Part shown: positions 26,307-31,392 of the stretch, in pieces
Position numbering within the stretch: position 1 is the first letter of the stretch
Layout: the number at the start of each line of letters is the position of its first letter
Virus record (IMG/VR): IMGVR_UViG_3300007962_000012
Coordinates: 1 to 31,392 of that record
Source: a virus
Taxonomy: Duplodnaviria > Caudoviricetes
Length of the DNA stretch: 31,392 bases
Strand: one strand, 5' to 3'
Translations under genes and position numbers: made by a program
Notes under the pieces: generated by a model
What the model was told of the DNA's origin: nothing
Databases searched by the model: none
Seen by the model: only the letters and a program-made list of their open reading frames with translations

Positions 26307-26519
26307 TTATAATTCTAGTTTTTTATCTTCAACTTTTTCTTCACCAGCTTTTTCCTTAAGTTTTTCAATTGCTTCATCATAACCTGGCATATATTTAATT
26401 GCTTCCAAGGTTCCTAAAGCTATTGTAGTTAGCTGATTTAATTCTCTTATTACTTTTTGATTGATCATTCCTAATGTCTCAATCTTGTTCTTCATTTCAA
26501 TTAGTGTCTGTTCTTTCAT
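26307..26519 (-). CDS. Hypothetical small coiled-coil protein
   Basis: 70-aa ORF packed in the - strand operon directly upstream of nrdA. Confidence 0.65.
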   Translation of the reverse strand: MKEQTLIEMKNKIETLGMINQKVIRELNQLTTIALGTLEAIKYMPGYDEAIEKLKEKAGEEKVEDKKLEL

Positions 26520-26913
26520 ATAATTGTTTATCTATTTCTTGTTGTGTTATATTTACTCTACCAACTTTGTTTGGTATTAAATGACATCCACTATATCCGA
26601 GCAAATGATATATGGCTTCATGTATTATGGCCCATTCAACTCTTTTATATTTGGCTAATATTTTAAAGTCATCTACATTTTTTCCTAACGATTTATGGGA
26701 GTTCATTCTAGGTTTTAAATCACTGGTTATTCCTACATAGTCTTCATTAGGTAATTTATATACTCTCCAATACCCATCAAGAGATTCTTTTCTTTTAGAT
26801 GTTCTATAAGAGATACTACATTTTTTACATTCTGGTCTTTCACCTTTGTCTTTGCCTCGCTTATAATAATCTGATAGAGGTTTTGGTAGTTTACATTTTG
26901 TACACTTTTTCAT
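26497..26913 (-). CDS. Zn-finger plus GIY-YIG-like endonuclease (putative homing endonuclease)
   Basis: N-terminal CTKC...CKKC, then WRVYKL-x4-YVGIT-x5-R-x3-H and a distal helix Glu (AIIHEA), fitting a GIY-YIG fold. Confidence 0.7.
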   Translation of the reverse strand: MKKCTKCKLPKPLSDYYKRGKDKGERPECKKCSISYRTSKRKESLDGYWRVYKLPNEDYVGITSDLKPRMNSHKSLGKNVDDFKILAKYKRVEWAIIHEAIYHLLGYSGCHLIPNKVGRVNITQQEIDKQLYERTDTN

Positions 26914-26914
26914 A

Positions 26915-27346
26915 TTATAAATGTCTATGAACAGCTTGCCTACTTATTTTTAATACGTCAGCTACATACTGTACGGTTTGTTTAGGCATTAGCTCTCTGA
27001 TTAATCTAATTTTAACTTTTGTTTTTAACTTCTTGTTATTACTTATAGACACAACTTCTTTAGTTCTTTCTAAATCTTGTTTCATCTGATAAAAATAACT
27101 TGATGCTGATTTTACTTTACGATCAGTTAATTCTTTAGACCATCTATATAGTGCAGCTTGCAACCAACTATAGGGTTTTTTCCAGTCTTCAAATCCAAAA
27201 ATTACGTGAAGATCCCATGTGTTTCCGTGTAACTTATGATACCACCAATATTCAAACCCATCAAAGGTTATCTTATGATTCTCAGGAAGACATAGAGATT
27301 CAAGGTCTTGATCTGACCAACTCGTTATATTCATATCTATTTCCAT
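26915..27346 (-). CDS. Protein with C-terminal helix-turn-helix
   Basis: The C-terminus TVQYVADVLKISRQAVHRHL is a clear HTH. The N-terminal domain is Trp-rich and unrecognised. Confidence 0.7.
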   Translation of the reverse strand: MEIDMNITSWSDQDLESLCLPENHKITFDGFEYWWYHKLHGNTWDLHVIFGFEDWKKPYSWLQAALYRWSKELTDRKVKSASSYFYQMKQDLERTKEVVSISNNKKLKTKVKIRLIRELMPKQTVQYVADVLKISRQAVHRHL

Positions 27347-29323: not shown

Positions 29324-29745
29324 TCCTTTTGGTTTTGTGGTTTATAAAGCGTGTGTCCTGGAAACTGATTAGATACTAATAACTTAAACATCTTCCATCT
29401 CAATGGAAATGACTCATTAGCTCTACCTTTAGTTTCTATTATAAAGTCTTCACCAATAAAATCAGGAGTATATTTTATAGGTAGTATTCTTTTACAACCT
29501 CTATTTTTATAATCCCCTTTGCTATTAGCTTGTCTTTCATATACTTCATTTTCAAAATGAAATCCGTTTAACAAAACAAAAGTTTCACCTTCGTATTTTG
29601 TTTTTATCTTTGCTTTCTGTAAAGCAATATACATATATTTTTCCAGACCTGAAGCAAAGTCAATACCATCATATGATACTTTCTTTGCTCTTACCGGACC
29701 GCGCTTGCCGCTCTTTCTTTTAAATGACTTCCTCATAGTCAACAT
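29278..29745 (-). CDS. T7 endonuclease I-like Holliday junction resolvase
   Basis: FASGLE...KYE...YTPDF...IIETKG matches the T7 gp3 pattern. The true start may be the ATG at 29736. Confidence 0.85.
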   Translation of the reverse strand: MLTMRKSFKRKSGKRGPVRAKKVSYDGIDFASGLEKYMYIALQKAKIKTKYEGETFVLLNGFHFENEVYERQANSKGDYKNRGCKRILPIKYTPDFIGEDFIIETKGRANESFPLRWKMFKLLVSNQFPGHTLYKPQNQKECDETVQIILEKQRS

Positions 29746-29983
29746 CTAAGTCACTTAATAAATCTTCTTGAAGATCTGTAGTATAAACTTCTTTAGCTTT
29801 TTGTAAATACAATACAGCATCCATAAGTTCTTCTTGTAAATGATTAAGCCATTCAAACATCTTTGATGGGTCATCTTGCAGTGTTACACCGTATTTGGCA
29901 AAGCCAACATCTGATCTTGACACGAATTTATCTACAACTCTTTCAACAACTGGGTCTCTAAATTCTATTTGTTTTTTATTCAT
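29720..29983 (-). CDS. Small all-alpha NTP-pyrophosphatase (MazG-like) protein
   Basis: G-x-x-KYGVTL...WLNHLQEELMDAVLY gives an EExxD acidic helix of the MazG/dimeric dUTPase superfamily type. Confidence 0.55.
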   Translation of the reverse strand: MNKKQIEFRDPVVERVVDKFVSRSDVGFAKYGVTLQDDPSKMFEWLNHLQEELMDAVLYLQKAKEVYTTDLQEDLLSDLDVDYEEVI

Positions 29984-30747
29984 TATAAAGTTTGTTTTAC
30001 AAATGTTCCATTAATCATTTTACCTTGACGATCTTTAATAACACCGTAAGCAGATGTTATACAGTCTTCAATGTTATGACCTCTTAGTTTTGCTAAGTTA
30101 GTCAAAACAACGACCATATCACCAATAGCATCAATAACTTCTGTCTCATCATTTTTTAATAAAGCTTGAGCTAGCTCACCTGCTTCTTCCATTAACTTTA
30201 TATATTGAGTTCTAGAATCACCAGACTTGTATATACCTTTTGCTTTAGCCCAAGCTCTTATGTCATCATACACGGTGTTAGAAGGAGCTTTCACTTCGCT
30301 TGCTAAAAACTCCGAAGCGTAAGCTTTATTATAAATGTAACATCTGTTTACATTAAACATAGATACTTTAGCGTTTTTACATATCCAATTAATAGTTTGA
30401 TCGTCTAAGCCAAATGTACCGTGATCAGTCGCCCATTTAAGACCCATGTTATCCATTAAATTGCCTTTTAATTTATTAATCGGCATTGGAAATGTTGTTG
30501 TTTGCTCTGTTGAATTTAATTTCATTTTATTATTTTTATTGATTAAATTTTTATAAGATTGTCTGTCAACTTTATATCTATAAGACTTTTGAAGTTCTAT
30601 TTCACGGCCTGATATATAATCTATATCTGTTGACTGTTCAAGAACTTCATACTCACCCTCCTTATATCCTTGCATAAGGGTAACTCTATTCTTAAGATTA
30701 CGTGTAACACCAATTTTTTTACCCGGAATGTGGTATATATAATACAT
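29983..30747 (-). CDS. GIY-YIG-like N-domain fused to a MazG-like nucleotide pyrophosphohydrolase
   Basis: N-terminus YYIYHIPGKKIGVT...R...E. C-terminus KLMEEAGELAQA...EVIDAIGD (EExxE...DxxxD). Confidence 0.75.
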   Translation of the reverse strand: MYYIYHIPGKKIGVTRNLKNRVTLMQGYKEGEYEVLEQSTDIDYISGREIELQKSYRYKVDRQSYKNLINKNNKMKLNSTEQTTTFPMPINKLKGNLMDNMGLKWATDHGTFGLDDQTINWICKNAKVSMFNVNRCYIYNKAYASEFLASEVKAPSNTVYDDIRAWAKAKGIYKSGDSRTQYIKLMEEAGELAQALLKNDETEVIDAIGDMVVVLTNLAKLRGHNIEDCITSAYGVIKDRQGKMINGTFVKQTL

Positions 30748-30755
30748 ATTTATTT

Positions 30756-31392
30756 TTATTTGCCAACGCTTAACTCTGCTTTGATTGCAGACAAAGGATT
30801 GTAGTTAATTAATTTAATTTTATTTGATTCAGGTATATATAAATCATTACTGATACTTAAAAATATACCGCTATCTAATTCTAATTGAGGAAGCTTTGGA
30901 TTGTGTCTTCTTCTAAACTCCCTAGCCTGATCTAAATGATTGTTGTATAAGTGACAATCGCCTAGTTGACCAATTAATTGACCAGCTTTTAACTCAGCTC
31001 CTTTAGCTAACATTTCTAATAGCAGACCATACATTGCAATATCGTAAGGTAAACCTAAGAATACATCAGCAGATCTTTGTATCCACATTAAATCCATTTT
31101 ACCATCGTTGATATAAACTTGAAAAGCGTAATGACAAGGAGGTAAGGCCATATGTTTTAATTGACCAACATTCCAAGCATTAACCATTAGTCTTCTCGAG
31201 CTAGGATTCTCTTTTATATTCTTAACTAAATTCAATAACTGATCTTCATACCTTGTGTAGTAGCCATCAGTTCTTTTCCAGTTACGCCATTGTGCGCCAT
31301 AAACAGGGCCTAATGTTCCGTCTGTTCTGCCTGATCTTTTATAATCGGCATCCCAATAAGTTACATTATTATCCTGTAAGTATTTCATATCT
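30756..31392 (-). CDS. thyA: Thymidylate synthase-family enzyme (5' truncated) with Asn-to-Asp at the base-specificity position
   Basis: Contains GPVYGAQWR, SSRR, LPPCH, QRSAD, GLPYDI and DCHLYNNH. The frame stays open to the window edge. Confidence 0.9.
   Translation of the reverse strand, partial: DMKYLQDNNVTYWDADYKRSGRTDGTLGPVYGAQWRNWKRTDGYYTRYEDQLLNLVKNIKENPSSRRLMVNAWNVGQLKHMALPPCHYAFQVYINDGKMDLMWIQRSADVFLGLPYDIAMYGLLLEMLAKGAELKAGQLIGQLGDCHLYNNHLDQAREFRRRHNPKLPQLELDSGIFLSISNDLYIPESNKIKLINYNPLSAIKAELSVGK

Follow-up and report, generated by a model that had tools for sequence, protein, structure and literature searches.

The window analysed here (31,392 nucleotides) is a 31.4-kb piece of the genome of a marine tailed phage, and its final ORF, which runs from position 31392 to 30756 on the minus strand, encodes a homologue of thymidylate synthase (PF00303, E 5e-62). 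The product is predicted to be a ThyA-fold dCMP C5-methyltransferase, that is, a 5-methyl-dCMP synthase. The 5' end of the ORF lies beyond the contig end, and approximately 70 N-terminal residues are absent; the sequence QRSADVFLGLPYDIAMY is found in this ORF on the minus strand. Two further minus-strand genes stand beside it. Positions 29983-30747 encode a three-part protein which, as judged from profile matches, has an N-terminal GIY-YIG/T5orf172-like domain, an unassigned middle part and a C-terminal MazG-like NTP pyrophosphatase domain, and positions 29720-29983 encode an 87-residue protein with an invariant QEExxD motif and a predicted two-helix structure.

The original prediction held that a GAT codon at 31041-31043 places Asp at the pyrimidine-specificity position of the enzyme. 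Re-reading of the sequence and alignment with E. coli ThyA confirmed this codon (minus strand) and its correspondence to E. coli Asn177, and the Asp is fixed in the relatives. The Leu143-Pro-Pro-Cys146-His147 motif was read from the sequence at 31131-31145 on the same strand (codons for Leu143 at 31143-31145, for the catalytic Cys146 at 31134-31136 and for His147 at 31131-31133), its residue code being that given in the available parts of PMC13326640 and PMC8670742. In the E. coli ThyA alignment W80, Y94, R126, R127, L143, C146 and H147 are retained, as are R166, S167, D169, H207 and Y209, and the statement that the catalytic residues are intact (R126/R127, C146, R166, S167, D169, H207 and Y209) is thereby borne out. 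The same cannot be said of WDADY in place of WDEW, which had been singled out as unusual: Asn-type relatives show WDAD, WDADLY or WDGDAY there. A two-residue C-terminal extension was likewise rejected as a special feature, being present in Asn-type relatives too.

The window enzyme is 41% identical to E. coli ThyA, 28% to the Xp12 enzyme and 26% to T4 gp42. The predicted structure of a full-length homologue (P0002, 80% identical to the window enzyme) has a pLDDT of 96 and a TM score of 0.89 to E. coli ThyA, so that both the profile match and the fold place the protein in the ThyA superfamily (PF00303). The predicted model is an ordinary ThyA fold and is uninformative on the substrate.

Asp177 is present in all 120 homologues among the matches listed and at all 80 IMG/VR loci, both sets having been picked by likeness to the query; the Asn177 of canonical thymidylate synthase is thus replaced in the window and in 120/120 listed homologues. 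Among 150 more distant representatives, the same position holds Asn in 142, Asp in seven and Ser in one. When IMG/VR was scanned with a 28-base motif, the version with the Asp codon gave at least 119 matches (approximately 190 estimated) and the version with the Asn codon gave none. A single transition separates the two codons, and therefore this contrast points to selection for Asp at position 177. At least 50% of the words of the region are present in 14 DNA runs, and contigs from two runs besides the window's own cover the Asp codon with no alternative letter among the rows listed; one RNA run yielded no contig there and so speaks neither for nor against. An assembly error at the GAT codon was therefore rejected, given the agreement of these contigs with the 120 listed homologues and the 80 loci. 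Other positions are equally constant in the 120 listed homologues: all have Leu143 and Asp169, all have Tyr79 (Ile in 141/142 Asn-type representatives) and all have Met180 (Ser in 131/142). At position 147 the listed homologues invariably have His, Xp12 has Pro and T4 gp42 has Thr. In engineered ThyA enzymes, a His after the catalytic Cys limits dCMP use, and the caveat entered on this point at the outset stands. The fixed I79Y and S180M changes may retune a pocket that retains His147.

A FastTree tree of 163 sequences, from which columns 79, 147, 176, 177 and 180 were left out, grouped ten sampled members of the clade at 0.97, and these together with two further Asp-type proteins at 0.96. The window clade is nested inside Asn-type ThyA and Xp12 falls elsewhere; judged from this tree, the window lineage arose independently of Xp12. 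Membership of the Xp12/PaMx74 lineage was rejected on the basis of 28% identity, a separate branch and the retention of His147. This nesting is also what might be expected if the enzyme were still mainly a thymidylate synthase converting dUMP to dTMP, with a protonated Asp177, His147 and I79Y/S180M together keeping dUMP use and the phage DNA unmodified. Such an enzyme would be in keeping with the retained His147, with a fold and sequence closest to canonical ThyA, with there being no second gene of the ThyA family next to ribonucleotide reductase in this genome of 34% GC, and with the failure to find a kinase or deaminase. The absence of any match in IMG/VR to the Asn version of the motif weighs against it, as do two further lines of evidence given below, and we regard this explanation as rather improbable.

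What the enzyme makes can be predicted from published residue patterns. According to the available part of PMC8670742 (MetaGPA), Asp177 accompanies cytosine-modified contigs and position 147 is the second most discriminating position. The accessible text of PMC13326640 gives a code in which Asp177 denotes dCMP, an acidic residue 143 hydroxymethyl and Asn169 hydroxy, and under that code the Leu143 and Asp169 of the window enzyme predict a methyl product. The window enzyme combines the residues of a 5-methyl-dCMP synthase (Asp177, Cys146, Asp169 and a non-acidic residue 143). The acidic residue 143 of T4 gp42-type hydroxymethylases is replaced by Leu in 120/120 listed homologues (the type C sisters described below have Asp), and the D169N change of 5-hydroxy-dCMP synthases of the RB69 gp48 type is not seen, Asp169 being present in 120/120. 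The proposal had been 5-methyl- or 5-hydroxymethyl-dCMP; Leu143, Asp169 and the full ThyA C-terminus favour the methyl product over hydroxymethyl or hydroxy, so that the first part of the proposal is upheld and the second is disfavoured.

These same three features argue against the idea that the enzyme acts on dCMP but releases 5-hydroxymethyl-dCMP or another product, or that the base is further modified on the DNA. This idea could draw on the fixed I79Y, which could alter the folate pocket or water access, and on position 143 being no strict rule, Xp12 having Asn three residues before its Cys. GATC sites are moreover kept in gene-bearing genomes, although MboI and DpnII cut 5mC DNA in the part of PMC7653180 available. 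An 87-residue protein subtype common to types A and B and different in type C, and the lack of a recognised transferase in the ORF survey of four genomes, add to the case against, and we hold this outcome to be decidedly improbable.

Natural N177D phage enzymes making 5mdCMP have already been published, the class as such being known from Xp12 and MetaGPA. As reported in the available portion of 10.1101/2024.12.05.627091, five of seven phage N177D enzymes gave 5mdC in vivo when T4 gp1 kinase was co-expressed, and the other two of the seven predicted enzymes were not confirmed. Points against the predicted assignment of the window enzyme to this class include the retained His147, the lack of a cultured member (the best ThyA match in a cultured phage is 46% identical) and the failure, described below, to find a phage kinase or dCMP deaminase.

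In order to avoid selection by the synthase itself, the genomic slot was surveyed by way of the upstream primase-helicase (79-100% identical), taking the best 80 of 576 loci found; some of these are almost the same sequence, and a single 129-kb contig contributes two of them. Three lineages occupy the slot. Type A, to which the window belongs, was present at 27 loci, type B at seven and type C at 44, six of which were assigned by hand, and two loci had no synthase. Type B is ThyA-like, 37% identical to type A, with Leu143 and Tyr147. Type C is a T4 gp42-like protein of 213 residues (35% identical to gp42 over 147 residues) with Asp143, Thr147 and no C-terminal tail; one type C gene is truncated where its contig stops, and another carries Ser in place of Arg166. 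All 77 readable slot genes among these best 80 of 576 loci have Asp177, and none has Asn. At least 11 type changes were counted on the primase tree, and therefore closely related phages have exchanged the gene, each time for a different enzyme with Asp. A slot shared with gp42-like enzymes, and never held by an Asn enzyme at the best 80 of 576 loci, is difficult to square with a thymidylate synthase.

Several features of individual slot loci were also recorded. The type C protein, the commonest slot occupant (L306-L377, e.g. L306:11966-12604), has a homologue in gp32 of Bacteroides phage BF486P2 (44%). The type B gene at L313:11966-12772 has Asp177, Tyr147 and a WNEW folate motif. IMGVR_UViG_3300047157_000162 (129,537 bases; L017, L105, L306 and L319) carries two copies of the early region, one of type A and one of type C, and probably represents a join between two genomes. 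The terminase piece of this contig shows 97% identity to that of the window and its type A gene 70%, a disparity which is a sign of module exchange.

The MazG fusion accompanies the synthase closely. It is present at 75 of 78 gene-bearing loci, the remaining three being cut by contig ends, and it is gained and lost together with the ThyA-family gene: the two synthase-less loci (one species) also lack both the MazG fusion and the 87-residue gene, and carry a metallophosphoesterase. The fusion matches PF03819 (E 2e-5) and phrog_1992 (E 2e-33), and is a candidate dCTPase of the cassette; the T5orf172 match is weak (E 0.048, in a relative). In the window the GIY-YIG-like domain, the middle domain and MazG form one ORF, and in G001 and L308 the first two are ORFs of their own; at least 95% of 72 sequences retain Arg21, Glu49 and Glu51 of this region. 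By analogy with T4 endonuclease II, which acts on unmodified host DNA, the GIY-YIG-like domain may possibly be a nuclease of the same kind.

The 87-residue protein is a candidate half-MazG nucleotide enzyme. Its pairwise identity separates type C from type A/B genomes with an AUC of 1.00 (72 sequences). The two domains encoded between the 87-residue gene and the synthase give lower values, the MazG domain 0.52 and the GIY-like domain 0.64. Among the loci caught by the pattern, the second position before QEE holds His in 28/28 A/B and Asp in 40/40 C. This tracking of subtypes suggests a functional pairing with the synthase that is kept across a recombining gene. The predicted structure is a helix pair (pTM 0.39) for which a fold search gave no match, and a Pfam search of the protein returned no family; the best relevant likeness, to the LQEELxD of dCTP pyrophosphatase 1, was not significant (E 1.6). 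Atlas searches with this protein and with the middle domain of the MazG fusion found unnamed or MazG clusters only. In one reading the 87-residue protein clears deaminated nucleotides from the pool (dUTP versus 5hmdUTP), and in another it is a modification-specific activation step. The notion that the His type is specific to 5mC was weakened by His-type homologues in the synthase-less elemoE and MW202828. In addition, elemoE, without a synthase gene, has its own annotated PRA-PH gene, and MazG-type genes are therefore not specific to cytosine modification.

The restriction-site content of genomes with and without the gene bears on whether the phage DNA is modified, since a phage with modified cytosine would be under no pressure to lose C-containing sites. 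Twelve C-containing 4-base palindromes were counted in 30 genomes, taken whole or as their first 60-70 kb, and the counts were set against those expected from a maximal-order Markov model. Of these genomes, 20 carry the gene (11 type A, the window included, three type B and six type C) and ten lack PF00303. The lowest observed/expected ratio was at least 0.43 in 20/20 gene-bearing genomes, whereas at least one palindrome was at zero in 10/10 gene-less genomes, for example CCGG (0 observed, 32 expected) in G051, TCGA (0 and 38) in G052 and GATC (0 and 202) in MW202828. For six of the genomes, five of them gene-less and one of type C, the outcome had been predicted in writing beforehand, and the prediction held in 6/6. 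With GATC and TCGA excluded, purging was seen in 0/20 gene-bearing and 9/10 gene-less genomes (Fisher p 7e-7, uncorrected for kinship), and palindromes of A and T alone showed no purge in either group. The two groups consist of non-independent genomes; the close controls are G051 and G052 (primase 80% identical; 73% and 68% complete), the other eight being more distant and possibly infecting different hosts, and a search by metallophosphoesterase gave L387 as the sole further close control. The signal names neither the responsible base nor the responsible cassette gene. A C5 DNA methylase that might account otherwise for the palindrome pattern was found in none of 40 near-complete genomes. Separately, the non-palindromic CCAG is nearly absent (0-4 seen, 224-294 expected) from the synthase-less L301, G087, G089 and G091.

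The pattern can be compared with enzyme digests of phage DNA. In the part of PMC7653180 available, BfaI, BstUI, HpaII, NlaIII, HaeIII, HhaI, MspI and Sau3AI fail to cut the all-5mC DNA of Xp12, the uncut sites including CTAG, CGCG, CCGG, CATG, GGCC and GCGC, and MboI, DpnII and TaqI do cut it. From these digests, 5mC can account for the retention of GATC sites only where the enzyme faced is Sau3AI-like, since MboI and DpnII cut Xp12 DNA. GATATC is depleted in gene-bearing phages (seen/expected 48/173 in A, 14/46 in B and 56/110 in C, with 143/216 in gene-less genomes; 3/10.7 in the window). The EcoRV digest in the same portion of PMC7653180 covers the 5hmC DNA of T4gt, which is cut, Xp12 being without an EcoRV site. 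As gene-bearing phages avoid GATATC and EcoRV cuts 5hmC DNA, such phages evidently do meet restriction. Overall, the palindrome pattern implies protected DNA in gene-bearing genomes, which is indirect support for 5mC, and the keeping of restriction sites in gene-bearing genomes alone is the other observation that speaks against a thymidylate synthase. Taken with the fixed Asp and the slot common to other Asp-type enzymes, it lends support to two claims of the original prediction, namely that the enzyme uses dCMP and that the genome is cytosine-modified.

The genes that would complete such a pathway were sought in the relatives. dCMP deaminase (PF00383) was found in 0/50 and 0/34 records, dNMP kinase and thymidylate kinase in none of 40 near-complete relatives, and the PF00303 gene is single in 49/50 relatives. 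When the ORFs of four genomes were surveyed, by comparing 85 ORFs with PHROGs and 40 cluster representatives with Pfam and by scanning for Walker A motifs, no polymerase, DHFR, ThyX or kinase was recognised, nor was a transferase. The linked dCMP deaminase and DHFR of Xp12 and PaMx74 thus have no counterpart in the 50 and 34 records (PF00383) or in the four-genome survey (DHFR). As no such pathway genes were recognised, the path must depend on enzymes of the host or on a small protein that escaped recognition, and cytosine substitution may be partial. Among the control genomes, that of Bacteroides thetaiotaomicron alone had no match to the thymidylate kinase family PF02223; a different kinase may serve in Bacteroidota, possibly one relevant to host activation of 5mdCMP.

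As no kinase that might convert 5mdCMP to its triphosphate was found in the phages, it could be argued that dCMP is methylated and then deaminated by a host dCMP deaminase to dTMP, giving a roundabout thymidylate supply and little 5mC in the DNA. For Xp12, the available text of 10.1101/2024.12.05.627091 proposes that 5mdC nucleotides are deaminated to the thymidine forms. The hydroxymethylase-type gene found in the same slot in 44/80 relatives could not yield dTMP in this way, however, and the palindrome pattern implies protected DNA, which together make this route highly improbable.

In our judgement the evidence as a whole probably describes an enzyme that converts dCMP to 5-methyl-dCMP, with the MazG domain as dCTPase, host kinases and polymerase, and 5mC DNA that resists many type II enzymes. 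In ThyA chemistry, Cys146 attacks C6 and methylene-tetrahydrofolate supplies the carbon and the hydride. The ThyA-fold Asp177 enzyme would apply this to dCMP, Asp177 accepting the N3/N4 edge of cytosine, and would form the interchangeable head of a three-gene cassette. The MazG-like domain would remove dCTP and return dCMP as substrate. The remaining steps would fall to the host's own kinases, dihydrofolate reductase and polymerase, which are invoked because no phage versions were recognised; dTMP would be supplied by the host. The cassette would thereby replace much of the cytosine in phage DNA with 5-methylcytosine and so block host restriction enzymes.

If the 5-methyl-dCMP interpretation is correct, many members of a phage family with thousands of IMG/VR records (approximately 15,000 stored stretches match its terminase patterns) would have 5mC or 5hmC DNA and be annotated as plain thyA. 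The enzyme would be a natural, independent counterpart of the classic N177D engineering result, functioning with His147 in place, and the family would offer a natural experiment, closely related phages differing in whether they have a methylase, a hydroxymethylase or no modification, with an effect readable in restriction-site content. It also raises the question of how, with no kinase of the phage's own, the modified nucleotide is converted to its triphosphate. The published status of the basic enzyme class limits the surprise; no literature linking this phage family to cytosine modification was found, most subscription papers being outside coverage. A bolder reading, unlikely in our estimation, is that marine flavobacterial phages rewrite cytosine by a minimal three-gene cassette without phage kinase or polymerase. 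Sister phages would switch between 5mC and 5hmC by swapping the synthase and the 87-residue protein, for which no family is known. That protein would sense the C5 substituent, through His in the methylase phages and Asp in those with a hydroxymethylase, and would be a nucleotide enzyme of a new kind, possibly one that provides the missing activation step by transferring pyrophosphate from dCTP to the modified monophosphate.

The portal (41-43%) and capsid (36-42%) proteins resemble those of Elemovirus (elemoE) and of Cellulophaga phages phi38:1/phi40:1, which makes a flavobacterium the likely host of the window phage; both proteins are 50-51% identical to those of MW202828, and complete relatives are 58-71 kb. 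Elsewhere in the window, an ORF with zinc-finger and GIY-YIG matches (26497-26913) and an HTH ORF (26915-27346) lie between the two ribonucleotide reductase genes and are missing in most relatives; they may be a mobile endonuclease. L024, L041, L344 and L387 have a B12-dependent class II enzyme in place of the class Ia ribonucleotide reductase pair. The late genes of G001 (L083, G001:38001-58000) are split into many short ORFs, which suggests assembly frameshift errors or another code.

By structural genes, the nearest cultured phages are Flavobacterium phage elemoE (Elemovirus) and Cellulophaga phage phi38:1 (Pervagoviridae), which are similar in size and layout but, unlike the window phage, have no PF00303 gene and have several restriction sites purged. 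The T4 pathway (gp42, gp56 and kinase gp1, gp56 being a dCTPase) shares with the window cassette a pyrophosphatase and a GIY-YIG-like partner, and differs in that no kinase or glucosyltransferase was recognised in the window phage. T4 gp42 itself has Asp at the position of residue 177, as the window enzyme does, but has Asp143/Thr147 where the latter has Leu143/His147 and a full C-terminus. The closest functional parallels are the deoxycytidylate C5-methyltransferases of Xanthomonas phage Xp12 (QNN97214.1) and Pseudomonas phage PaMx74 (YP_009199491.1) and the MetaGPA N177D enzymes, which likewise have the ThyA fold, Cys146, Asp169, Asp177 and the GLPYD motif. Xp12 and PaMx74 also share with the window a neighbour of nucleotide pyrophosphatase type, and the predicted product is likewise 5mdCMP. 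The window enzyme differs from them in having His147, Leu143, I79Y and S180M, in having no adjoining dCMP deaminase, DHFR or DNA polymerase A where deaminase and DHFR adjoin the synthase in Xp12 and PaMx74, in the likely Flavobacteriaceae host of its phage, and in that its activity is a predicted one. Canonical ThyA, at 41-44% identity and a TM score of 0.89, shares with it the catalytic and phosphate-binding residues and His147, but has Asn177 (142/150 representatives), whereas the window clade has a natural, fixed Asp177 together with further fixed changes in the pocket.
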